Of a DNA stretch of 64,000 nucleotides, positions 10,402 to 62,662 are shown piece after piece. The stretch lies in the NCBI GenBank assembly GCA_964016885.1, contig OZ024740.1, positions 405,480,001 through 405,544,000 of the forward strand, in the 5' to 3' direction. A program made the translations under genes and the position numbers. The first letter of the stretch is position 1. The number at the start of each line of letters is the position of its first letter. The DNA comes from Eledone cirrhosa. Taxonomy: Eukaryota. A model generated the notes under the pieces. That model did not search any database. It was not told the origin of the DNA and saw only the letters and a list, made by a program, of their open reading frames with translations.

Positions 10402-11832
10402 ATGCCAAAGTTAAAGTCAAATTCACCTCGTGGACGAGAATGCGAGCACTCCTCTTTGTTTCGTCCGCAGATGGCTAACATAACCCTATCTACCCCGCCC
10501 CCCACCACCCCCACCCTCCAAACGCAACCCAAAACTTCAGAGTTGGTACCATTAATGTAGGCACCCTAAAGGGTCGCGCTAAAGAGGTTGTAGAAATGCT
10601 TGAACGTAAGGAGGTCGATGTTTGTTGTATTCAAGAGACCAGGTGGAGGGGTGGGTCTGCTAGATTCATTGAGGGTAAAAAACGATGTTATAAGCTTTTC
10701 TGGGTGGGAAACGACGATGGGCTGGGTGGAGTAGGAATCATGGTAGCAGAAAAGTGGGCAGATAAGATAATAGACGTAAATAGAGTGAACGACAGAATAA
10801 TTAAAATACGACTTGTCCTCAATAGAACTACGGTGACAGTAATATCTGCGTACGCACCCCAATCCGAACTGCCCGGCACTATAAAAGACAGATTCTATGA
10901 GACACTGTTGCTAACTACCTCCCAAATATCTGACAGTGACTATATAATTATTGCAGGCGACTTAAATGGTCACGTTGGACAACATTGTGACGGCTACGAC
11001 GAAATCCATGGAGGCTATGGGTTTGGTACTAGAAATGAGGAAGGCTCCAGAATCCTGGAATTCTGTGATGCAAATAACCTAACTATCTGTAACACTAACT
11101 TCAAAAAACGTGACAATCACCTGATCACCTATAGATCCGGGGAACACACAAGCCAGGTAGATTATATCCTTACCAGAAGACGTGACAGAGTGTCTGTTGT
11201 AAACACTAAATCCCTCCCCCATGAAGAATGCACCTCCCAACATAGACTGATAATTAGCGACCTCATAGTCAGGACGAGACGTACTCGACAGCAGAAGAGG
11301 ACTATCCTCAGGAGGAAAATATGGAAACTAAAGGACCCCACAGTCAGAAATAAATTTCAAAGCATATTACTTGATGCTTTCGACAGTAAGGAAGAGCATC
11401 TAGAATCGGACAATATAGAGGGACAGTGGGAATTTCTGAAAGCAAACCTGCTGATGGCGGCAGACGAAGTCTGTGGCTGGAGCAGGCCTGTAGGCAGGAG
11501 GAGAGTAACATGGTGGTGGAACAGTAGGGTGGAGGGGTCAATTAAGGCCAAAAAGCAGGCTTGGAAAGTATGGCGGGATGGGGAAGTAGAGTAGACTATC
11601 AAGTGGCCAGGAGGGAAGCTAGGAGAGAAGTGTACTTAGCAAGAAGGGAAGCTGAGGAAAGAAAGTTCAAGCATGTTCTACAACGCGATGACCAAAAACG
11701 TGAGGTGTTCAGGATTGCTAGGCAGTCCTATGCGAGCAAGACAATCACTCTTGCCTCAAGTGGGACTACCCCCGTCCAAACCCATGCAAGCATGGAACAC
11801 GGACGTTAAACGTTGATGATGATGATGATGAT
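10402..11832 (+). mobile_element. RTE LINE (family R1) 5' part: APE endonuclease joined by internal deletion to the 3' UTR and (GAT)n tail
   Basis: FRVGTINVGTL, CCIQETRW, ISAYAPQ, AGDLNGHVG, QVDYIL, TSQHRL are APE motifs (ORF 10596-11594). There are frameshifts near 10533 and 11580. After VFRIARQ (11724) the sequence switches to the R1 3' UTR. No RT is present. Confidence 0.9.
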
Positions 11833-15811: not shown

Positions 15812-16347
15812 TTAATTTGATGTTGAAGAATTCTTTTTTTTTGTTAAAATTTGTGAAACTAGCTTTATAAATTTGGGATTTTTCAATATTTTCAAATGGT
15901 CAGCTTTTGGAACAACATAATGGTGAACAGGTTGCTTCTGTTGCTTTGACCATTTCAGACAGCCGAGCAAACTTGGTAAATTCACTGTACCGTCTCCTGG
16001 TCCATATATTGTCTTAGGTTGAACATTAGGATACCGTTTACCATAAATAAAACTAGCAGGAGTAGGTACCTCAATTCCATGTATACAATGAACTTCTACT
16101 CCAGGAGGTCGCAGGTCTTTCACAAGACCCTCAGTGTCTTTACGCATGTCATAACCAGTTGTAAAGTTCAAATCTTTAAAAAACTGCTGGTAATCATTAA
16201 CAGTATAATTGCGTCCAGGATGAGAAACAAGTATTTCATCTGATTTCCAGAAAGTATCGTATGGCATAAGCCAAGCTGTTGAAGATGCAGTTCTCTGGTA
16301 TTTCCGAACAATATTATCTTTCAGTATACTAATTCCAAGATTATCCC
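15812..16347 (-). CDS. PLA2G15: Group XV phospholipase A2 / LCAT-like, coding exon 6 (last)
   Basis: Acceptor tttag|GG GAT AAT. Encodes GDNLG...PPGVEVHCIHG...GDGTVN (catalytic Asp)...ADHLKIL (catalytic His). TAA at 15812-15814. 536 nt. Confidence 0.95.
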
Positions 16348-16439
16348 CTAAATACAAATAAAAAGAAAAGTATTTTAATACATTAAAAAGGAAAATTTAT
16401 TCAGGCAAATAGAATGAAGTATTATGTGTGTTAGACCTA

Positions 16440-30610: not shown

Positions 30611-30769
30611 TATACTGTAAATGTGGGCGTTAGGAAGGGCAACCAGAGACACCCCTATATGAGCAAGACACGGTCACCCGACACAACTTGCCTCAAAAAT
30701 AGGACCCGTCTAACCCATGCTAGCATGGAAGATGGATGTTAATCGATGATGATGATGATATATATATCA

Positions 30770-31460
30770 GGTTTCATGACATTGGATGGCAACCTTACCT
30801 GTTAGATATGGTGGCCTTGGCCTCCGGTCTCCGTGGAACCAGCTTGGACTTAGCCCAGTAGATGTTCCTCCTCCTCCTCCCCCTGCTGACGTCAGGTTTC
30901 CCTGAAGCTTTGTCTCTGGATCTGTGAGCCACACAAATGTCACTGCGGATCCTAAATGGACTCTTTCGGCCTCCACCCGCTTTCCTGTCACTACAGTGCT
31001 GGCCGCTTTCCACACCATGTCACTCTCAACGAGGTCATAAAGCATGGCTTGAATGCTGCAGGCTTCCCCTCCCAGCTCGAGCCGGTGGAACTGAACCGAG
31101 GGGACGGCAAAAGGCCAGACGGTATAACCATCTTCCCGTTCTGCGATGGCAAACCCCTTGTCTGAGATGCCACTTGCAGCGACACTTTCACCAACCACAA
31201 CCTGGTGCAGTCTGCAACTAACCCAGGTTCTGTTGCACTTCAGGCTGAGGAGGGCAAACTCTGACTCATGCCCCTAGAAGTGGAGACTTCTGGCGTCCTT
31301 GACCCAAGAGCTACCTCCCTACTTACCATCATAGGCATTGAGTTAGCTAGCCACAAGTGTGAGCCTCGCGAGATGGAATGGCTCTTCCAGCGCATCTCCC
31401 TTACTCCGAGGAAACGCCTTCTCCATTCTGTTTGCCGTGGGGCAGCCAGCACGTGGGATC
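30770..31460 (+). mobile_element. CRE-like retrotransposon 3' fragment
   Basis: [45 protein letters not shown]. Homologous to 61690-62560. Confidence 0.85.
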
Positions 31461-34659: not shown

Positions 34660-35240
34660 TGGCACCAGCGTCACCAATTGTTGAGTGCACTAGGTGCATC
34701 ACGGAACTAAACCTTATTATCAAGAGAGCTTTGGCCCGGGCTAACATCCCCTCAATCTTGGAACCATCTGGGTTGTCCAGAAGTGATGGGAAAGACCTGA
34801 CGGCCTTACCCTCTGCTTCTGGTCGAGAGGCAGATGCTTTGTCTGGGATGTCACAGTTAGTGACTATTTTGCTTCTGCCCACATCCTGGATGCTGCGGTT
34901 AGGGCGAGAGCTACAGCATCCACAGCCGAACGGTACAAAATCCTAAAATACCATCATCTGTTGGCCAACTATATTTTCCAGCCTGTGACGTCCGAGACAT
35001 TTGGGGGAGTCGGGCTACTTACTGTGAGATTCCTATCTTCATTGGCGGCGCGCCTAACAGAGGTAACTGGCGAAGCTCTTGGGGGTGCTTGGTTGTTCCA
35101 GCGCATTAGCCTCGCCATTACCCGACGTAACGAGGCGAGCATGCTGACTTGCCTCAAAAATCATTAGAGAAGTTTCCCAGTTCTCCTCGCGATACTGTTA
35201 TCAGCTCGGTTGTCCACCCCTTTCGCCTTCCTTTTGTTGT
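34660..35240 (+). mobile_element. CRE-like 3' fragment upstream of PLA2G15, 3' UTR interrupted by LTR element B
   Basis: LNLIIKRAL, LEPSGLSRSDGK(R)PDG, VWDVT, ETFGGVG, WLFQRISLAITRRN. Confidence 0.85.
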
Positions 35241-35523
35241 ATAGCGAAGATACTGGGTTGTATGAATGTAACAAAACGAGACATGGTTTGTGTGTATAAT
35301 ATTTAATTAACAATGGTAGATAGTATACTTTACATGTCAAAGATAGATGTTAGAATGAAACAAAGTTAGTAGTTACCGTTTTGATTGCCAGGCAAACGCG
35401 ACTGGCAGAGGACGCCTGGCTAAGGCCAGGCGCCTGTTGGCCAAATTAATGGCAGAGCCAAATGAGAGGCTCTTGGCCTGGTGCCGAAAAGGCAAAGAGA
35501 GAAAGGAAGCTTAAAGTTGTTAG

Positions 35524-35547
35524 TTTTATAGGGCTCTGACCGGAAGT
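35524..35547 (-). promoter_or_regulatory. LTR U3 core promoter: ETS-like CCGGAAGT plus TATAAAA
   Basis: The TTTTATAGG...GACCGGAAGT arrangement is conserved in all five full LTRs of A, B and C, despite otherwise divergent LTR sequence. Confidence 0.6.
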
Positions 35548-36955
35548 TGCAGAAAGGGTTCCACTTCCCGTCTAGATCCTAATCAAAACAAGGGAGACAA
35601 CCGCTACATAACCTCCCGCCAGAATTTTAGTGTATAAAAATCGAAATGAAAATATGTAGCAAGTTGGCGAGAATGTTGTAACAGGCATGAAAATTACGAC
35701 AAAAGAATGTTTGGAAAAATCAATGATAGATATCAAGGTAGCCAACCGCTCTTGGCCAGAGAACGACTGGACATCCATCTATCCATCACCCAAAGATACA
35801 ATGTAATAAAGTAAAAGTAATAGAAGAGCTCAAAGTTCAAAATATAGTTCACAGGTGTGCAATCACATGACAGCAGGAAAGAAAGTGTGTTCCAGAGAAT
35901 GAATGCAGGTGGTTTCTGTTCTGTGGTATATCGTGAAATTTCCAACCTCCGAATGGATTTTCTCACAGGAAGAGTGCTGCAAAAATGAATTCTCTGGCTT
36001 TGGTGAAGCTGTATTGATGTATTGCTGTTGCTGTTATATTGCTGTTGCTGCTGCTGTTGTCTCGCTGAGTGAGCGTATTCGGTGTTTAAATTCACAGTAA
36101 AAAATTTTTTTTTAGAAAAAATGAGTTGCGCAAAGTGCTAGAAATAGCAGCCGAAGTTGATGGTCGATGTTGAGAATGCATTGACCTGGAAGGGTCAAGA
36201 GGCCAGCGACCAGAGAAATAAGCATTCTTAATAAATGCGCGGTTATCAACGGTAAATTTACATTGTAAATTTATAAACCGGCAAATAGAAGAATATAGCT
36301 TAAGGCTGAAGAATCCCTGGTGAGAAATGTTATCTCTGGCGTGCGGCTGTCTGTGAGTAGAGACATCTCTGTGAATCGAGAATTTATGCTGCCTACACGT
36401 GCCAATACAAGGTTGAAAAAAATAATATTTCTAACGCGCGAGAAAATGATAGTGCAATTTTGAAAGTGACAATGATGAAAAAGAAAGGCTTCACTCAGCA
36501 TAATTATTGGTGTGAACTTTGGAAAAAAACAAAAAACTTGAACGATGAAGAAAACGATGAACAAAAAGGCAATGGTTCATCGAAAATAAATGTTCCTGTT
36601 GAAATGTTTTTTAAAGAATATCAAATTTCTTTTTTTTTTGTGTGTGTTTTGAAAGAGTTCGTTGTAAGAAACGAGAAACATATATATATATCGTGAAATG
36701 TTTTTTTTTTTTTTTTGTTTTGAAAGTGTTCGTTGTAAGAAACGAGAAACATATATATATATTGGTGAAATGCGACAGTTAATTGATGCGTGAGAGAAAA
36801 AGTCTGTCTGCGAATTCCACATGTGCGTGTGTGCGTGTCCTTGAGTATTTTCATAGTTTGTCGCTAAATTTGCTGTGTATTCGTAATGTTACTCACAAAA
36901 CCAGATGTGCTATTTTTTTCTTTTTTTGGGGGGGTGACCACTTATAGCGATGAAC

Positions 36956-36987
36956 GGCTGCGTGTTCGTATCACGTCGGGGTCACTA
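36956..36987 (-). promoter_or_regulatory. Extended tRNA-Trp primer-binding site of element B
   Basis: Plus strand GGCTGCGTGTTCGTATCACGTCGGGGTCACTA versus metazoan tRNA-Trp 3' end GGCTGCGTGTTCGAATCACGTCGGGGTCACCA. Confidence 0.9.
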
Positions 36988-37361
36988 ATATAGCGAAGAT
37001 ACTGGGTTGTATGAATGTAACAAAACGAGACATGGTTTGTGTGTATAATATTTAATTAACAATGGTAGATAGTATACTTGACATGTCAAAGATAGATGTT
37101 AGAATGAAACAAAGTTAGTAGTTACCGTTTTGATTGCCAGGCAAACGCGGCTGGCAGAGGACGCCTGTTGGCCAAATTAATGGCAGAGCCAAATGAGAGG
37201 CTCTTGACCTGGTGCCGAAAAGGCAAAGAGAGAAAGGAAGCTTAAAGTTGTTAGTTTTATAGGGCTCTGACCGGAAGTTTCAGAAAGGGTTCCACTTCCC
37301 GTCTAGATCCTAATCAAAACAAGGGAGACAACCGCTACAGTTGTATGTGGTCCCAAATGTG

Positions 37362-37898: not shown

Positions 37899-38055
37899 TT
37901 GGATTTATGCCAGGTAGGGGTACGACCAATGCTCTCTTTCTAGTGAGAAAACTACAGAAGAGATACTTAGCTAAGAGTTAGCCACTGTGTGTACTATTTG
38001 TAGATCTGAAGAAAGCCTTTGGCAGGGTACCAAACTCTATAATCTGATTGGCACT
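37899..38055 (+). mobile_element. RTE LINE RT, left half (split by Gypsy A)
   Basis: GFMPGRGTTNALFLVRKLQKRYLAK...FVDLKKAFGRVPNSII*LAL, continuing at 44744 as ALKKLVVDEWLVRAMQ. Confidence 0.9.
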
Positions 38056-39154
38056 TTAGGAGATTAGTATCGGTGTACACATAAAATTATTATAAAAGAC
38101 AGTAAATACCGGTGTGTGTTGTAATAATGTTTTTACTTCATAGAAGTCAAAGGTATTAAATGTTAAGAATTCGTTACCCGATGGTCACAACTCCAGGCTG
38201 AAGTTGGTAGAGAAAAGAAGAGATCTTTTCTAGCTGGTGTTAACATCTTAGGCTCTCAGGCTGAAAGTTGCATTGTTCTTGGTAGCGAAGGATTATCAAA
38301 AATGAATCATCTCAAGCTAAGGTCGCAGGTGTTACCACTTCGGAAATCAGGAGGCAAGAGAGATATCGTGGTGACCTGTTCCTTTTATAGGAGATGACCG
38401 GAAGTGACCAACAGGGAGTCTGTCAATCCCAAAGGGAAGCAACTCCAGCTACTTCCTGTCTAGAGAGCGATGATGAGATTGTCATGACAAGGGAGGCAAC
38501 TGTTGCTACATTATCTCCTGCCAGATTTTTAAAACATAAAAAATCGAAAGAAGCATGCATGGAGTAAGATGGCGAGCATGTAAGAGGCATGAAAATTATG
38601 ATACAATGTAATAAAAGTAAGAGAAGAGGTCAAAAGTTCAAATATCTAAAATACAATTCACATGTGTGCAATCACATGACAGCAGTAAAGAATGTGTTCC
38701 AGATAATGAATGCAGGTGGTTTCTGGTCTGTGGTATAACATGAAATTTCCAACTTCCGAAGGGAATTTCTCACAGGCAGAGTGCTGCAGAAATAAATTGT
38801 CTGGCTTGTTCTGCTGGTTTTAGTTGTTGATGAAGCTGTGTTGTTGTTGTTGATGAAGCTGTGTTGTTGTTGTTGTTGTTGTTGATGTTGTGAATGCGTT
38901 GACCTGGAAGGGTCAAGAGGCCAACGACCAGAGAAATAAGCATTCTTAATAAATGCGCGGTTTTCAACGGCAAATTTACGTGGTAAATTTATAAACCGGC
39001 AAATAGAAGAATATAGTTTAAAATGTTCGTTGTAAAGGAAACGAAAAACATATATATATACATCCAGTGAAATGGTAATGAGAGGTACATTGTAATACAA
39101 TAAATCAATAAATAACAAGAACAGAAAAAAAAATATAAGGCTCCAATGGCCAGT

Positions 39155-42100
39155 TCACATAAAAATAGTTTGGCAGAACTTTTGGGGCCAGTGGACTCTC
39201 CGACCGGAACGGGTCGTAGTCTTGTATGTAGGTGAAGGTGTGGCAGAAGGAGCAGGTGTATGCACAAGAGAGAAAGATTGGGGTATTTGTGGCTCGGGTG
39301 TATGAGCGTCATTGTGTGCCCTTTTCAGTCTATCCACCGAAATTGTTTCTCTGGACCCCTTAACGTCTACAGTGAAATGTTTTTCAGTGCGTGCTAACAC
39401 ACGGTAGGGTCCAGAGTATGGTTGTGTGAGGGGTGGTCTCACAGCATCGTTCCTTACGAACACATGGGTCCACGAGGCAATATCCCTCGGGACCGCAGGT
39501 TTTACAGTTTGCTTCCTCGTATCCATCGGCGGCAGATCCTGAAAATAAGAACGCAGACGGGATACGTAGGAAAGCGGATCTTGGAAAGCAAGATCAACAG
39601 GGACAAGCATTTGCCCAGGCAACGTTAGAGGAGCACCGTAAATTAATTCGGCCGGGGAGAACCCAAGGTCCTCCTTTATTGATGACCGAATTCTTAATAA
39701 CACAATAGGAAGGTACTCGCTCCAACGTTGAGAGTCTGGATAGGCGCGAAGAGCGGCCTTTAATTGGCGGTGGAATCGTTCCACCATTCCATTTGAAGCA
39801 GGGTGATTGGCTGTGGTCCGAATCCGTTGAGCTCCAATTATTTTTGTGAGCTCAGAGAAGAGATGGGACTCGAATTGTCTACCACGGTCTGTGGTGAGTG
39901 TAGTTGGTACCCCAAAGCGGGTAACCACCCTGATACCAGTGCACGTGCTACAGTCTCAGCAGTCATGTCTTGTAAAGGGATGGCTTCAGGCCATCGCGAA
40001 AAACGATCGACACACGTCAATATGTAAGAATATCCACCTCTGAATGGCCAAGGTCCGACGATGTCAATGTGGATGTGTTGAAACCGAGCATCTGGAGTAC
40101 TGAAAGTACCAAGTGGAGTCCGGATGCGTCTATGGATCTTCCATTTCTGGCAAGCGATACAGGAACGGCACCAAGCAGCAATGTCGCGCCTCATATTTGG
40201 CCAGAAGAATCTGGCTGTTATAAGTTTAACTGTGGCAGCAGATCCTGGATGAGAAATGTTGTACAAAGCCAGGAACACAATTCGACGGTGAGTCTCAGGA
40301 ACAAGTGGTCGTGGTGCATCAGTAGATACATCACATAGAATCTGCCTGTCGGTGGTGGACAAGGGCAGATATTTGAAAATGCAAGTCGCAAATTCAGTAG
40401 AAAGAGTGTCCAACGATTGGAGTGCAGGTTGGTCTGCAACTAAACGACCTAAGTCGATCTCCTGGGATGACGAGATGGAGCTAATTGGCAAACGTGACAA
40501 TGCGTCTGCAACTATGTTGTGCGAGCCGGCAATGTGCTGGATATCGTTTGTAAATTGTGAAACGTAGTCCAGGTGCCTTGTCTCTCTGGGCGAATATCTG
40601 TCGGCTTTGGCCCTCAAAGCGAAGGTCAACGGTTTGTGGTCGGTAAAAACCGTAAAAGTTCTCCCCTCAAGAATATGAGAGAAATGTTTCACCGACAGAT
40701 ATATGGCTAATAATTCCCGCCCAAACGTGCTATAACGCGTTTCTGCTGGTTTCAACTTCCTCGAGAAAAATGCCAAAGGTTGGTTTTCAGCGTAAGACTG
40801 TTGTAAAACTGCTCCCACAGCGGTATCAGATGCATCAACACAAAGCGAAAGCTTGGCCTCTGGTACCGGGTGGGCTAGCAAAGAAGAACTAGCGAGTGCT
40901 GTCTTGGCAGACTGGAAGTCCTGAAGCTGTCCTTGTGTCAAGGAAATGTCTTCATTCTTCTTACGACGATTTTTTAAAATGTCAGTAAGGGAAGATAGCC
41001 AATTAGCACAATGAGGAATGAAACGCCTATAGAAATTGATTAGGCCTAAGAAGTGACGCAACTGGTGAAGTGTAGTAGGCGGAGGTAACTCCTGTATGGC
41101 TTGAACTCGCTGAGGAAGCGGCCTAATACCTTCGGCGTCGATGAGGTGGCCTAAAAAATGTAGGGAAGTGGAACCGAAAACACACTTTGCAGGATTCACG
41201 CGAACGCGGTAATCCTGAAGTCGCCGAAATAAGAGAAGCATGTGGTGCATATGCTCTTCCGGAGAGGAACTAGCGACGAGAATATCGCCTATGTAAGCAT
41301 AAACGAAGTCCAGACCACGCGTGACCTCGTCTATGAACCGCTGAAAAGTGCTAGCGGCGTTCCTGAGTCCAAAAGGCATGGTCAAAAATTCGAATGATCC
41401 GAAAGGGGTTGTAATCGCAGTTTTCGGAATATCCTCCTTCCTGACCGGAATTTGGTGGTAGGCTCGCACTAAATCTAACTTAGAAAAAATCTTACACCCC
41501 TGCAGTGAAGATGCAAAATCGTGGAGATGGGGAATGGGATACCTATCCGGGACGGTCATGGCATTTAACCTCCTATAATCCCTCGTGGGTCTCCAGTCGC
41601 CGGAAGTCTTGGGCACCATGTGTAACGGTGAAGCCCAAGGACTCGTAGATGGGCGAATAATGCCCAGCTGCAGCATATGGTCGAACTCGGACCGTGCTGC
41701 CTTTAATTTTTCCGTCGGTAAGCGGCGTGGACGCGAAAACACTGGAGCACCGGTGGTGGAAACGAAATGTTGGGTCGAGTGTGTTGGGTCAGTGACTCGA
41801 AAATTTCCATCTGTGAGCTCTGGGAAAGAACCCAGCAACGCATGGTAGGCGTCTCCAGCGGCAGCGACAAAGAACATGGGGCTGACTATTGGAGCATTGG
41901 CTTCCTGGCCGTGAATTGAAAAGCCGGTGGTGTTATCCACCAGGCGTTGGCCACGGACGTCCACAGTTAAGGAGAAGTTGTGGAGGAAATCCGCTCCTAA
42001 GATGGGATATGGCAAATCGGCAACCGTAAAAATCCACTTAAAATCCCTTCGAAGATTTAAGAATTTAAGAGGGAGCGAGATTTGCCCGTACGTCTTTATA

Positions 42101-42300
42101 GACGACTGGTTAACTGCCTGCAGCGTAACAGATGACTCTATGGGGGTATCTTTCAGGCAATGGACCGGCCAAATACTACAGGAGGCTCCTGTATCCACGA
42201 GGAAACCTCTTCCGGACATTAGGTCCTTAATGAAGAAATGGCGGTTTGGTGACTTTATGTTGAGGTCAGCTGTCCCCATCAGCGGACCTCTTAGGCGTTT
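39155..42300 (-). pseudogene. pol: Gypsy pol (protease, RT, RNase H, integrase)
   Basis: FLVDTGA; MPFGLRNA; RT catalytic motif mutated to YIGD; VDASD and RELLA; integrase HPG..CIAC, HIDIVG, TDRGRQF, NGMVER. Frameshift near 39928. Confidence 0.95.
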
Positions 42301-42303
42301 CCC
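42262..42303 (-). promoter_or_regulatory. Putative -1 ribosomal frameshift signal
   Basis: G GGA AAC heptamer (42297-42303), 6-nt spacer containing the gag stop, then hairpin GAGGTC-C-GCTG-ATGGGGA-CAGC-T-GACCTC. pol is in the -1 frame. Confidence 0.8.
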
Positions 42304-43803
42304 GCCTTATGAAAGGAGCAAGGTTGCACGCAGTGACTCGCGTTCTCAGCAAATCACTCGTGGTACCAGCATAAAGATGAAGCTGGTGACTTAGAACGCC
42401 GTCTAAAACTTTGCGATCTCCCGCGACTGCGGGGGCGCGAACAGCCACCACACAAGGCCTTCATCTTGTGGAGCTCTATGGTGAGCTCCTGAATGGACCT
42501 TTGCATCGCTATAATGGTCGAGCTGTCTGTTGGCGTAGATCGCATGGCCGTGTGTGGCCCGAGCTGGGTGGTGAACAGCGGCAAGGGGGTCGCTGCCTCT
42601 GCATTCGTCACCTCGAAAACTTTGTCCGCATATGCGGCAAGCTGATCCACCGTGCTTGTATCACTCATGGGGGCCAAAATTGCCTGTACGTTGGTCGGCA
42701 GGCGCGAGAAGAACAACTGCTTCAGCAGGACAATTTCCGCTGCAGACCCCTCCGTTAGGTCCTTCATTCGCCTAAGGAGGTTCGATGGGGTGCCATCCCC
42801 TATATGTTCCAGATGGACCAGAGCCCTAAATCTCTTTTCTGAAGACTGTTCTGTCCGGCTGAGTATTTCAGCCTTCAGAGACGTATAGCGGAGAACTCGT
42901 TTTTGAAAGTGTTCGTTGTAGGAAACGAGAAACATATATATATCGTGAAATGCGACAGTTAGTTGATGCGTGAGAGAAAAAGTCTGTCTGAACGCGAATT
43001 TCACATGTGCGTGGTGTGTTCGTTTCTTGGAGAAACATATATATATATATCGTGAAATGCGACAGTTAGTTGATGCGCGAGAGAAAAAGTCTGTCTGCAC
43101 GAAAGTTTCACATGTGCGTGTGTGCGTTTCTTTGACTGAGTATTTTCATAGTTTGTCAATAAATTTGCTGTGTATTCGTAATGTTACTCACACAACACCA
43201 GATTTTGCTATTTTTTGTTGGGGGGGGGGGGGGGGCGACGACCACTTATACCAATGAACGGCTGCGTGTTCGTATCACGTCAGGGTTACCAATATAGCGG
43301 AGAACTCGTGTGTATGAATGTAACAAGGAGACATGGTTTGTGTGTATAATATTTAATCAACAATTTAACAGTATAGTTGACATGTCAATGAATAAACGAA
43401 AGAATGAAGCAAAGTTAGTAGTTACCGTTTTGATTGCCAGGCAAACGCGAGACGCCTGGCGAAGGCCAGGCGCCGGAAGGGCAAATGAGAGAGTGAGAAC
43501 TTAAAGTTGTTAGTTTTATAGGGTTCTGACCGGAAGTTACAGAAAGGGTTCTACTTCCTGTCTAGATGGTGTTGTGAGTGTCACAACAAGGGAGGCAACT
43601 GCTACAGACGTTTACGACGAGTCTGTGGTTGTCTCTAACACGAGGTCCTTAACCGCTGGGAGAATTGCCGGCGGAATTGCGCTAAGGACCACAGAATGTT
43701 GTAGTTCCTCGTCAACTCTGTTCGCCCTGAAGAATGCTTCTAACTGGGCGAACCATAGCCTCACGTCGCCCGTGTACGTTGGCAGAACAGAGTGGGAAGC
43801 CAT
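42291..43803 (-). pseudogene. gag: Gypsy gag, interrupted by element C
   Basis: LPTYTGDVRLWFAQLEAFF...[insertion]...TSLKAEILSR...IGDGTPSNLLRRM...LFFSRLP...CWYH..C..PC. Premature stops at 43612-43614 and 42354-42356. Confidence 0.9.
42885..43606 (-). mobile_element. Non-autonomous LTR element C (relative of B), internally deleted, inserted in gag
   Basis: TSD GACGT at 42880-42884 and 43607-43611. 5' LTR 43294-43606. Only 16 bp of the 3' LTR remain (42885-42900). Extended PBS at 43260-43291. Internal region matches 36650-36990. Confidence 0.92.
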
Positions 43804-44743
43804 TGGTATACCGTAGGCAATCTACCGTTTGGAAAAATATCTCTAACGTAACAGAAAAGGAAAACAAAATCGCTTATATCTCCGTCAAACCACTGGACCG
43901 GAAAAATAATGCATCCGGGACATATGCAAACAAGCGATTAAGTGAATGCTGTTATACTAAGGTAAGGGCAAGGAACCTAAAAAAAAAATCCAACATGGCG
44001 GACTATTTCGCGCCAAAAACATTATTGATGGAGAAGAGAGACTCCATCTTGTCATCCTCAAAAATTTTTAGCCAGAGAAGAGAAGGGCAGAAAAGGAGAG
44101 AAAAAAAAAGGCAAAAACATTTATACAATTGCTGTTTGTCTGTGTGTCAATAATTGTAGGTGTTCGTTTTGTATTAAATTGTTATATTTTTCTCTTTTTC
44201 TTCTGTCTTTCTTTTTTTTTACTTTCTACACCATATACCATTTCCCATTTTTTTTTTTTTTTTTTAAATCACATCGGGGGTCACCACTTTAGGAGATTAG
44301 TATCGGTGTACACATAAAATTATTATAAAAGACAGTAAATACCGGTGTGTGTTGTAATAATGTTTTTACTTCATAGAAGTCAAAGGTATTAAATGTTAAG
44401 AATTCGTTACCCGATGGTCACAACTCCAGGCTGAAGTTGGTAGAGAAAAGAAGAGATCTTTTCTAGCTGGTGTTAACATCTTAGGCTCTCAGGCTGAAAG
44501 TTGCATTGTTCTTGGTAGCGAAGGATTATCAAAAATGAATCATCTCAAGCTAAGGTCGCAGGTGTTACCACTTCGGAAATCAGGAGGCAAGAGAGATATC
44601 GTGGTGACCTGTTCCTTTTATAGGAGGTGACCGGAAGTGACCAACAGGGAGTCTGTCAATCCCAAAGAGAAGCAACTCCAGCTACTTCCTGTCTAGAGAG
44701 TGGTGATGAGATTGTCATGACAAGGGAGGCAACTGTTGCTACA

Positions 44744-45800
44744 GCACTTAAGAAGCTAGTTGTAGATGAATGGCTTGTGAGGGCCATGCAGACCATGTAT
44801 AGAGAAGCAATAAACAGAGTGAAAGTTGGCAATGAGTACAGTAATGAATTTGAAGTGAATGTGGGTATACACCAAGGATCAGTCCTCAGTCCACTCCTGT
44901 TTATCATTGTATTTCAAACCAACATTGAGGAGTTTAAAACTGGCACTCCATGGGAGCTCCTATATGCTGATGACCTAGTCCTCATAGCTGAATCTGTAGG
45001 AGAGTTAGAAGCAAAATCTCAAGCATGGAAGAAGAACCTAGAGTTGCAAGGCCTAAAATTAAATTTAGCGAAAACAAAAGTCCTAAGTAGGAAAGAAGAC
45101 AGGAAGGTTATACCATGAGGAAATTAACCTTGTTTAATATGGCAGAAGAGGTGGGCAGAAATTCCATAAGGTACACACAAGAGATGTAGTGGTATTTCAG
45201 GTAGGCTAACAGCTCCACGGAGGAAGTGAGCACAAAGAGCAAACCTGAAATAGATTCCCTCAGCTGCCAGGGAAGCTCCATAAAAATTTTTGACAGCTTT
45301 TGCTACCTAGGTGATCAAATTAGCAGTGGGGGAGGGTGTGCCAAAAGAGTGATAGCTAGGATAAGAACAGGCTAGGAGAGGTTTAGAGACCTATTACCAA
45401 TACTAACAACAAAATGCTTTTCTCTCAGAGTGAAGGGCAGACTGTGTGTAAACTGCAATGTTATACTGCAGTGAAACATGGGCCATGGCTGCAGAGGCTA
45501 GAAAGAAATGAGTCAAATATGCTCCAATGAATGCGTAATGTTAGTTTACATGAGCGACATAGCAGAAACAAACAGAGAGAAAAACTTAGCATAAGAAAAA
45601 TTGAATGTAGTGTGCAAAAGAGAAGTCTGCGTTGGTATGACATGTGATGTGGACTGAAGAGGCAGACACAGAAAGACATGGGATGAGGTTGTGAGGACTG
45701 ACCTTATAAAAACTAAACCTCTCAATAGAAATGACTAAAGACCACGAGGGCTGGCGTTATGTGGTGCCGAAGAAGACCTGACCTGCAACATACAATGTGG
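44744..45800 (+). mobile_element. RTE LINE RT, right half
   Basis: GIHQGSVLSPLLF, LLYADDLVL, GLKLNLAKTK, then a degraded C-terminus. Confidence 0.9.
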
Positions 45801-58593: not shown

Positions 58594-60630
58594 ATCAATC
58601 ATCATCATCATCAACGTTTAACGTCCGTGTTCCACGCTTGCATGGGTTTGGACGGGGGTATTCCCACTTGAGGCAAGAGTGATTGTCTTGCTCGCATAGG
58701 ACTGTCTGGCAGGTTTTCTACAGTTGGATGCCCTTCCTAACACCAACCACATTTACAGTGTGGGTCTGGGAGGTTTTTACCGTGTTGCCTACACGGCCAC
58801 ATTACAGCGTGGACTGTCTGGCAGGTTTTCTACAGTTGGATGCCCTTCCTAACACCAACCACATTTACAGTGTGGGTCTGGGAGGTTTTTACCGTGTTGC
58901 CTACACGGCCACATTACAGCGTGGACTGTGTGTTTTTTTGTCGTGACACCTACATGATCTCATTTGTTTCGGCCTAGATGTTGTGGCACCAACATAACTT
59001 TACATAGGAGGGGGTGGTGTGGATGGGGTGTGGGTGGTGGGACGGGGGTGTATTTTGTTAGAGATGCCTACTGGCTGTAGTAGGTTTTACTATGTATTTA
59101 GGTAAGGCGGGTCTTCTCTATTACTGAGTACCGCCAAAGGTCTCGGTCCAGTGACATTGTCTTGGAGAGGTGTAAGTGTGTGAGGTCGGAGTTTATCAGC
59201 TCGTCCCAGGATTTTCTAGGTCTGCCTATTCCGTGGCTACCGTCTATCTTTATTGCCCTGCACTTTGTTATACAGCTATCGACTTTCATGCACATCACGT
59301 GTCCGTACCAATGTAGCCTTCTCTCGAGTAAACAACATCTGATCCCTCTTATTTCTAATTTTTTCCTTAGTTCGTTTATGCTTTGCCGTTCACGTATATT
59401 ACTATTACACATCCAGCGGAGCATGCAAGCTTCGTTCCTCTCTAGTCTGCGTATATCCTCTGCGCACAATGCCCAGGTCTCACTGCCATGCAACATTGCT
59501 GTTCGTATGCAGGCATCATACAACCTGCCTTTCATTTTTAGGGAGAACCCTTTAGCGGCTAATAGTGGTATAAGCTCTCTGAACTTTTTCCATCCAGTTC
59601 TGACTCTAGCTACTGTACTTTCGGAGCACCCTCCCCCACTGCTGATTTTGTCACCCAGGTAACGGAAGCTGTCCACTATTTCTATAGAGCCCTCTGCGCA
59701 ATTGAAAGAGTTAGTATTTTGTGGGCACTCGCTGCTACTTATTGCACCAGAGCACCGCCCACATGTAAAATCTAAGTTCTTAGTTAGCTTACCTGTGATC
59801 CCACTACATCTTTTATGCACCCATACTTTGCATTTGGGACATAAAACCTACGCCTTTCCTACACACTGAGCATGGCCATTTCCCGGAAGGGACCGCCACC
59901 TTATTTTCTTTCCTACAAACTAGAACTTTAGTCTTAGCCAGGTTAATTTTAAGGCCTTTTGATTCTAGGCCGTGCTTCCATGTTTGGAATTTCTTCTCTA
60001 GCTCGGCCATTGATTCAGCTATGAGAGTCAGGTCGTCTGCGTATAGGAGTTCCCATGGGCAGCCGGTCTTGAACTCCTCTGTTATAGCCTGAAGGGCAAT
60101 AATAAATAGTAGAGGGCTGAGAACAGAGCCCTGATGGACGCCAACTTTTACGCTAAACTCTTCACTATATTCGTTGTTAATTCTAACCTTGCTGACTGTT
60201 TCTTTATACATGGCTTGTATAGCTCTCACAAGCCATTCGTCGACACCTAGTTTTCTAAGGGCCCACCAGATAATGGAACGGGGGACTCTGTCGAAGGCTT
60301 TCTCCAAGTCGACAAAAGCTAAGTAGAGGGGTTTACCTTTAGCTAGGTACTTCTCCTGTAGTTGACGTACAATGAAAAGAGCGTCTGTGGTACTTTTGCC
60401 TGACACAAACCCGAACTGCATTTCATCTAGGTCAATTCTCTCTCTGATTAGTTGCGCTATTACTTTTTCTGTGACCTTCATGACCTGGTCGATTAATTTA
60501 ATGCCTTTATAGTTACTCCTATCTAGGGCATCTCCTTTACCCTTGTAGCAGTTAATGATGATGCTGCTACGCCAGTCCTTCGGAACAACCCCATTCTGTA
60601 CGACTTGGTTAACTATCCGGGTGACCAAGG
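58594..60630 (-). mobile_element. 5'-truncated RTE LINE (family R1): RT, PHD-like finger, 3' UTR and (GAT)n tail
   Basis: ORFs 59813-60628 and 59098-59820: FVDLEKAFD, GVHQGSVLSPLLF, LLYADDL. One frameshift near 59843. Confidence 0.95.
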
Positions 60631-60658
60631 TGTATATATTATATTTTCAGAAAGAAAG

Positions 60659-61262: not shown

Positions 61263-61689
61263 TTAAATTACTGACCTAAATCAAAAGTCAACACAAATAT
61301 TTACAGAAGTAATAGAAAGAAGTCATAAGCGAGAGAGATGATATTTCTAAAATATTCATAATTATTTGTTACTCATTTAAACTGAATGAAATGATTTTAC
61401 ATTTCTACACTAATGGTTTTTGCTGTCACTGTTGTGACACCAGCAACTAATACACTTGAAGTGTTTTTATTATTATTATTATTATTTTTTATTAGAAGAT
61501 AATTTATTTACTTCCCCAGTTAGGGATATGGTAAAATTACATTGGCAGACATATTATACTTCATTTTATAAATTTACAATAGAATAACATTGCAAATATA
61601 TTTTACATAAATAACATTACAAATTCGTAAATAACATTATAAATTGCTTGCAATTCGCTCAGAAAACATTGCAAATAAACAGAACTCTC

Positions 61690-62662
61690 TGTGTTCAGAG
61701 AACGTGAGGCTGCCTGTGAGATGTGGGACTGGCTGGGACTTAGCCCAGTAGACGTCCCTCTTCCTTCTCCCCCTGTTGACGTTGAGTCCCCCAAACGCAC
61801 TTGGGATGCCATCCAGTGCAGCCTGGCCTCAGACAGGCTCACGTGCCAGCTCGACCAGCACCGCCTCGCTTGTTTTCGTGCGGCCTCCAAACCTCACAGT
61901 GGTGCCTGGCTCCATGCCCTGCCCTCCTTCTCCACTGGCACACAGCTAGACAACCATAGCCTGCGAATCGGTGTTTCCCTGAGGCTCGGCCTCCGGATCT
62001 GCCAGCCACACCAATGTCGCTGCGGTTCCACCGTGGACTCTTTCGGCCTCCACCCGCTTTCCTGTCTCCACAGTGCCGGCCACATTCCACGCCATGCTGC
62101 CCTCAACGAGGTCATTAAGCATGGCTTGGACGCTGCAGGCTTCCCTTCCTAGCTCGAGCCGGTGGGGCTGGATCGAGGGGACGGCAAAAGGTCAGATGAC
62201 ATGACCATCTTCCCGTTCCGTGGTGGCAAACCCCTCGTCTGGGATGCCACTTGCACCGACACTTTCTGCAGCCGCAACCTGGTGCAGTCTGCGACTGACC
62301 CAGGTTCTGCTGCACGTCGGGCTGAGGGGGCCAAACTCCTCAAACACCGGTTGCTCTCCGACAGGTTTGCGGTCGTTCCCCTGGCAGTGGAAACTTCTGG
62401 TGTCCTCGGCCCCAGGGCTACCTCCTTACTCACCACCATAGGCGCTGAGCTGGCCAGCCACAGGTGTGAGCCCCGCGAGTTGGAGTGGCTTTTCCAGCGC
62501 GTCTCCCTTGCCGTCCTCTGGGGAAACGCCTTCTCCATTCTGTCCGCCGGGGCTGTGGGTGGGCCCCATCACATACCAATACATTAGTTAAATACCATTC
62601 TTTCATCTGATACAACACAATAAAGACTAAAGTGTTTAAGAAAAAAAAAAAAAAAAAAAAAA
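61690..62662 (+). mobile_element. CRE-clade retrotransposon 3' region (Zn knuckle plus RLE), possibly ending in poly(A)
   Basis: [29 protein letters not shown]...RH, KR(S)D(D), WDATC, VETSG. A-run at 62641-62662. Confidence 0.88.

Follow-up and report, generated by a model that had tools for sequence, protein, structure and literature searches.

A 32-nt copy of mature tRNA-Trp in a non-coding LTR retrotransposon family of Eledone cirrhosa, probably written by reverse transcription past a methylated A58

Two copies of a non-coding LTR retrotransposon, elements B and C, carry next to the 5' LTR a tract of 32 nt that corresponds to positions 45-76 of tRNA-Trp, with a T in place of A58. This tract is probably a copy of the mature tRNA, common to the whole family, which arose once when reverse transcriptase (RT) passed a methylated A58, inserted a wrong base and jumped to an LTR end. 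More interesting than the copies in B and C is the genome-wide pattern of junctions between tRNA-Trp and LTRs, in which errors and end points recur.

Results

The tracts of B and C match mature tRNA-Trp

The window, i.e., the whole stretch of 64,000 nt that was analysed, spans G000:C1:405480001-405544000 of a 3.0-Gb assembly. For comparison with the tracts, one host gene for tRNA-Trp(CCA) was taken from the ARAGORN calls and CCA was added to it. As the elements are read on the minus strand, the plus strand shows the tRNA sense. Within positions 45-76 the tract of B differs from the tRNA only at 58 (A to T) and 75, and that of C at 58 (A to T), 67 and 72. The initial annotation had located both tracts exactly, and its alignment to tRNA-Trp, with T58 as the one mismatch common to both copies and a primer site of normal length in element A, was confirmed against the host sequence. 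Beyond the 18-nt primer site 13 of 14 bases agree with the tRNA (binomial 1.6e-7), and the agreement stops at G45. The tract includes the CCA end, which is missing from the host genes, indicating that the template was mature tRNA. The possibility that the tract itself is a tRNA gene was dismissed, as ARAGORN (no tRNA gene within the window) and Rfam (no relevant match at 30000-52000) were both blank at the site.

Host tRNA-Trp(CCA) genes were found by ARAGORN in clusters on contig C4 and elsewhere. For the comparison, Trp genes were located by pattern search, while a family search for tRNA genes gave at least 16 places; 35 gene-like copies were collected and 33 of them scored, two degenerate ones being omitted. 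These encode A58 in 31 of the 33 copies and T58 in two (L159 and L160), and the match to the tracts runs beyond 18 nt, as the initial annotation had expected of the host genes. The two exceptions raise the question whether a variant tRNA gene or pseudogene with T58 was the source of the tract. This is extremely unlikely: L159 also departs at 32, 37 and 49 and L160 has A57, whereas B/C have G49 and G57, so neither represents the B/C haplotype. The genes also lack CCA, and none of the gene copies examined could have supplied the C and G that occur at 58 in other junctions (see below).

L159 (G000:C4:277429827) is a clustered gene copy, and two of its four changed positions (32, 37, 49 and 58) are likely methylation sites; cDNA may have overwritten this gene, or its changes may be due to chance decay. 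Tandem tRNA-Trp gene clusters lie at G000:C4:353.39-353.49 Mb and 277.40-277.44 Mb, with about 48 and 11 copies, respectively, among those listed, the larger cluster having mostly A57.

Elements B, C and A

The positions of the elements and their parts are given in Table 1. Two features beside the tract had escaped the initial annotation, a duplicated LTR end and a remnant of an older primer site. The tRNA match of this remnant (67-76) persists in deeper-branching copies of the B family, and the 11-nt LTR-end duplicate in B is likely the place where an over-extended plus strand landed in a wrong transfer.

Table 1. Features of elements A, B and C in the window; positions are those of the window.
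Feature	Position	Strand	Remarks
Element B, non-coding LTR retrotransposon, 2100 bp	35240-37339	-	LTRs 94% identical
B target duplication GTTG, 4 bp	35236-35239 and 37340-37343		
B 3' LTR	35240-35608	-	
B polypurine-tract-like sequence adjoining 3' LTR	35609-35622	-	from the sequence
B 10-nt remnant of older tRNA-Trp primer site (67-76)	36931-36940	-	
B 11-nt duplicate of LTR (U5) end	36943-36953	-	layout shared by L071, L111 and L135
B tract complementary to tRNA-Trp 45-76	36956-36987	-	ordinary 18-nt primer site at 36970-36987
T replacing tRNA A58 in B	36969	+	alignment to host tRNA-Trp
B 5' LTR	36989-37339	-	
Element A, Ty3/gypsy, CsRn1-like, broken gag-pol	38055-44743	-	
A LTRs	38055-38510 and 44288-44743	-	99% identical
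A pol over two frames: RT, RNase H, integrase	39155-42306	-	Pfam matches, in that order
A primer site, not extended, roughly 20 nt of tRNA-Trp (57-76)	44266-44286	-	a single substitution and an additional G
Element C, deleted B-family copy nested in gag of A	42884-43606	-	
C target duplication GACG	42880-42883 and 43607-43610		
C 3' LTR, 16 nt left	42884-42899	-	
C decayed primer-site remnant and duplicated LTR end	43235-43257	-	
C 32-nt tRNA-Trp tract, T58 at 43273	43260-43291	-	alignment to host tRNA-Trp
C 5' LTR	43293-43606	-	

Element A is flanked on both sides by a 4-bp target duplication (GCAC), and its Gag has the spacing CX2HX9CX3C with an in-frame stop within the motif. The 3' internal region of B is 75-94% like that of A. 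The U5 ends of the LTRs of all three elements read TA or AA instead of CA in element sense (35240, 36989, 38055, 43293, 44288), while the U3 ends have the usual TG. From resemblance, element A presumably sits inside a LINE fragment. We take an open frame at 15812-16396 (minus strand) to be like the last exon of a phospholipase/LCAT-like gene, and presumably LINE-like endonuclease/RT fragments and other retroelement remnants occupy 10479-11594, 30767-31273, 44624-45118, 59098-60646 and 61679-62152.

B and C belong to a young family that carries T58

The initial annotation had laid weight on the retention of T58 in two diverged copies. T58 is indeed present in both, but B and C belong to one family, and the shared T58 is therefore one inherited event; by themselves, the two copies are no evidence of what caused it. 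A genome search with the 18-nt motif, position 58 being N, gave 621 matches, and none for the reversed control; among the 100 matches listed, position 58 was T in 91, A in five and C in four. With a pattern anchored in the flanks, 386 matches were obtained (T in 97, C in three and A in none of the 100 listed). The family statistics rest on 80 B/C copies. The tract measured 32 nt in every one of them, and position 58 was T in 77, C in three and A in none, so that the extended length and the loss of A58, noted initially for two copies, hold across the sample.

Both LTRs were located in 49 of the 80 copies; 43 of these have the 4-bp duplication, eight have identical LTRs, and 47 measure 1.9-2.2 kb, giving a family length of about 2.1 kb, which is above the TRIM size (less than about 1 kb). 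With LTRs, primer site, purine tract and target duplication all present, B/C represents an LTR retrotransposon of the non-autonomous kind. Gag-pol is absent: tblastn with pieces of A matched only two of the 80 internal stretches (1.4-1.8 kb), and there only integrase fragments. B/C is a young, non-coding family of several hundred copies that presumably borrows its proteins from an A-like element.

T58 is found on every branch of the family, including the deepest rows (L020 and L117). The majority haplotype mismatches the tRNA at 67 and 72, within the primer site. The haplotype matching the tRNA at these positions occurs in nine of the 80 rows, dispersed on the tree of the adjacent internal sequence (eight changes, at least four forced by strong branches; shuffled mean 8.7), which fits an occasional refresh of 59-76 from the primer, with recombination as an alternative. 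Continual renewal of the entire tract from the tRNA was discarded, as 79 of the 80 copies have G57 and 70 have 67A; with A58 in none of the 80, one possible renewal was noted (the second match in L278). B-type LTR junctions with a base other than T at 58 (n = 15) comprise six tract copies with C and nine bare 18-nt copies. The latter are joined to inverted LTRs or to internal sites, and eight of the nine match the tRNA fully, versus nine of 80 ordinary copies; they resemble newly made plus strands that stopped at 59. For one copy with C58, T47 and a matching site, renewal past 58 is a possibility. The ancestral, pre-duplication junction of the B-type LTR gave no match in a search at one mismatch.

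Rearranged copies were also observed. In L147 and L027 the B-family tract unit is duplicated in tandem (46 nt), likely by slippage between the two LTR-end copies. Head-to-head inverted LTRs joined at the primer copy occur in L281, L283, L288 and L242, and also in L096, L136, L084, L097 and L105; in the B-family cases, the two sides are joined through a short overlap where the 18-nt copy ends.

Independent junctions are enriched for changes at position 58

The claim of the initial annotation that read-through wrote a tRNA modification signature into the genome is supported, yet by independent tRNA-Trp/LTR junctions and not by B/C. Patterns excluding B/C gave 87 matches in one case and 94, genes included, in another; in total, 115 distinct junctions were collected, forming 49 clusters by inner flank. 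The tests treat all positions alike and exclude B/C and family D. A single mismatch within 49-76 was present in 21 of 41 junctions, and in eight of these 21 it fell on position 58 (p 6e-7). In an overlapping set of 44 junctions with at most two mismatches in 41-75, position 58 accounted for 12 of 49 mismatches (p 3e-8). Here the base at 58 was A in 32, T in seven, C in three and G in two, on both G57 and A57 backgrounds, while A44, A59, A62 and A73 showed no mismatch at all. Most read-through copies (32 of 44) thus carry the correct A58, and some of the other states may share ancestry, as they cluster in few LTR groups. When families F, G and L136 were taken out, 4 of 16 mismatches remained at 58 (p 0.003); family F was left out of this conservative test since its decayed form has T at the aligned position. 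In the gene-like copies only 2 of 43 mismatches are at 58 (p 0.48; against the junctions, Fisher p 0.019). A G to A change at 49 (5 of 49 mismatches in the junctions) was rejected as a further signature, as it is also raised in the gene copies (4 of 43).

Such errors are expected of m1A, which causes RT arrest together with misincorporation, as described in part of PMC4787781. C makes up 3 of the 12 non-A states here, and, according to the same excerpts, little C is misincorporated in vitro where m1A is followed by A, although with a different enzyme. In family E (L034, L043, L052, L082, L166, L235, L275, L276), the tract ends at 39 and position 58 is A, C or G; a DNA search with this family gave three matches.

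As the B/C tract goes back to a single event and its majority haplotype has also fixed changes at 67 and 72, a chance A to T change has to be considered, in which the tract would stem from read-through but T58 would be an ordinary mutation fixed in the founder lineage; it may have been tolerated because a methylated A58 cannot pair. Family D, which has the same 45-76 tract and A58 in 24 of 24 copies, is in accord with this. However, T58 reaches the deepest branches of the family, and T is the commonest base other than A in the independent junctions, where the other internal A sites are unchanged. We therefore consider an ordinary mutation rather improbable and, given a read-through origin, an error at the methylated base a strong likelihood.

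The end points of long tracts cluster

The end points were determined for 37 junctions, one per cluster, that reach position 41 or further. Of these, 28 end at 35-41 (mode 38), none at 31-34, eight at 25-30 and one near the 5' end. The upper edge of the main group at 41 is a product of the search pattern but the gap at 31-34 is not (p 6e-5 against a uniform distribution over 25-41). Position G37 is mismatched in three of the nine longest tracts and also in L163. Seven ends lie at 35-36, just past G37; Cm34, which human tRNA-Trp carries according to excerpts of PMC10275265, could be their source. The same excerpts describe m1G37 as widespread and give dimethylation of G26 for 127 of the 160 cytosolic tRNAs characterised in eukaryotes; for plus strands of HIV, the available text of PMC13191261 reports stops at 58, 55/54 and 37. 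The two groups of ends fit stops at G37 and G26, assuming that the host tRNA bears these marks and that RT stops there; A58, G37 and G26 are presumably all methylated in this host. Eight more junctions end at 42-50, and B/C and D end at 45, a position for which no annotated modification fits.

In L143 (G000:C14 near 18749180), the outer end of a 3' LTR is joined to a tRNA-Trp copy that is nearly complete and includes CCA. The changes in this copy include G26 and A58, and L143 is possibly a tRNA-LTR proto-SINE structure.

A single mis-transfer may account for the B/C tract

A read-through origin of the B/C tract is very likely. The founding plus strand would have passed A58 with a wrong base and ended near 45. 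Unable to pair at the primer site, it would have settled on the minus strand at the U5 end and been extended from there, across the old primer site, into the element. This course would explain why a duplicated LTR end and an old primer site lie beside the tract. After the founding event, the tract would have been transmitted via element RNA; ordinary cycles would stop at 18 nt, at times refreshing 59-76 from the primer and leaving T58 in place. All steps after the tRNA match itself are ones that we infer from the arrangement of sequences.

The same layout recurs in L071, L111 and L135, in which the LTR end is repeated over 12-24 nt and overlaps the tract by 2-4 nt. Many singletons contain the whole LTR up to the U3 terminus, followed by unrelated flank, which is the extent of a plus-strand product and favours the plus-strand route. 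Alternatively, a LINE RT or a repair polymerase may have copied the tRNA on minus-strand strong-stop DNA, with later capture of the product; the marks of modification would then be similar. The polarity of the junctions (tRNA sense, CCA, minus-strand LTR) would be the same for both routes, but minus strong-stop DNA comprises R-U5 only while the singletons reach the U3 end, and the LTR joined in L143 is a 3' LTR, past which integrase sequence follows. Capture by another enzyme is therefore very unlikely, and plus-strand synthesis would be what made the copy.

Coding families bear long tracts as well

The initial annotation had proposed that longer primer pairing helps the non-coding elements to compete for tRNA-Trp and RT. 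This does not hold up, since coding families also carry tracts and the excess conservation of 45-57 is weak; a special benefit of the extension to non-coding elements is unsupported. Long tracts next to gag-pol homology were found in families D and F and in L107/L112, L094 and L115. An apparent strong purifying selection on 45-57 (0 of 310 windows as low) was withdrawn, as rows whose internal sequence was unrelated had inflated it. After removal of five badly aligned rows of the 80, 16 of 297 flank windows were as low as 45-57. Against the pooled flanks the difference remained (Fisher p 0.005), mainly owing to the variable LTR, and the neighbouring internal region was little different (3 of 13 versus 47 of 128 variable columns).

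That the extension was selected because longer tRNA-Trp pairing or RNA structure helps B/C to compete would be compatible with the read-through origin, yet it is unlikely and the extension need not be adaptive. The constant length of 32 nt, the few variable columns in 45-57, a predicted duplex of -60.6 kcal/mol for 32 nt versus -32.4 kcal/mol for 18 nt, and the common end at 45 of the amplified families B/C and D would all suit selection. Besides the flank windows of equal conservation and the tracts of coding families, what speaks against it are the two primer-site mismatches tolerated in most copies, the loss of 50-66 in most copies of family F (see below), and folds of the region that are not clearly above shuffled sequences (z -1.8, -0.5).

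The family F rows (L244-L273, L055, L140, L150-L153) include 30 sampled from 153 candidates. In this coding family, 28 of 37 rows keep 38-49 and 67-76 while the middle (50-66) has decayed, two identical rows have exactly 59-76 restored, and seven have the full 38-76 tract, with A at 58 in four and T in three. The seven full-tract copies, all of which were first found via the tract itself, require seven changes on the tree, at least four of them forced. The full tract likely reappears by rewriting from the primer, and strands stopping at 38 are likely caught by the retained 38-49, which would act as a long primer over-extension sequence. This suggests that family F accepts over-extended plus strands in replication. 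Complementarity to the tRNA beyond 58 adjoins the primer site in both families (45-57 in B/C, 38-49 in F).

Discussion

Taken together, the junctions may constitute an inherited in vivo map of tRNA-Trp modification, with errors at 58, 37 and 26 and stops near 38 and 27, in which long acceptors of some CsRn1-like families, reaching to 38, rescue read-through strands, so that primer sequence with its modification errors enters the germ line repeatedly; we hold this wider reading to be evenly balanced between right and wrong. If it is true, tRNA modifications, past or present, can be read from assemblies alone. Should the marks at 58, 37 and 26 be signatures of modification, assemblies record the in vivo behaviour of RT on modified tRNA, modifications could be deduced for animals without tRNA-seq, and one way in which mobile elements acquire sequence from primer tRNAs would be shown.

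tRNA inserts in retroviral circle junctions are known from older work, and single cases may be in print. Our literature search, which covered titles and abstracts and left older and subscription work largely outside its scope, returned no description of primer tRNA that was copied into a genome in extended form and bears modification marks. Ohshima and Okada reportedly put forward a tRNA plus strong-stop model of how some SINEs originated. L143 resembles such an intermediate in that a near full-length tRNA with CCA is fused to an LTR end, but it is a single copy with no sign of amplification, and B/C carry 45-76 only.

Among known elements, those of the CsRn1 clade (CsRn1, PwRn1, AgCR) share with element A the tRNA-Trp primer site, the 4-bp duplication and the Gag motif CX2HX9CX3C (part of PMC2582038); A is likened to CsRn1 by these features and by the order of its Pol domains. 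An extended primer tract is not reported for the clade in the available sections of PMC2582038, and B/C are non-coding. Helenus, Cassandra and Ajax are, like B/C, non-autonomous LTR elements holding sequence derived from small RNAs or tRNAs, with a 4-bp duplication in animals (excerpts of PMC10886601). According to the same source in part, the A and B boxes of Helenus lie within its two LTRs and are not complementary to the primer site, and the element is mostly shorter than 1 kb. Unlike Helenus and TRIMp3, B/C are 2.1 kb long and have a single internal tract outside the LTR, which comprises only the 3' half of the tRNA and lacks an A box. The errors at 58 recall the RT signatures of tRNA-seq, in which arrest and misincorporation occur at m1A (PMC4787781, in part). 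Here, in contrast, a retrotransposon RT would have produced them in vivo and they would have been passed on as DNA, and the spectrum of bases differs from that of the m1A-A context in vitro.

Both read-through products and acceptors for over-extended strands are already known in HIV. The HIV-1 plus-strand strong-stop products P1-P5 have, as here, a main stop before A58 and a minor one at the modified position 37 (available text of PMC13191261). The lentiviral primer over-extension sequence is, like the tracts described here, an acceptor adjoining the primer site for over-extended DNA (part of PMC8599865); it is also cited in PMC6088434, as far as that text was available, and the accessible portions of PMC3747384 and PMC3601003 contain nothing on it. 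The HIV acceptor spans a few bases; of products past 54, the same part of PMC8599865 states that they are unable to transfer or integrate. Retroviral plus strands of this kind have thus been regarded as dead ends, whereas here they were integrated dozens of times: unlike in HIV, products extending to 45, 38, 27 and beyond are found in the germ-line genome, and some of them founded amplifying families of tens to hundreds of copies.
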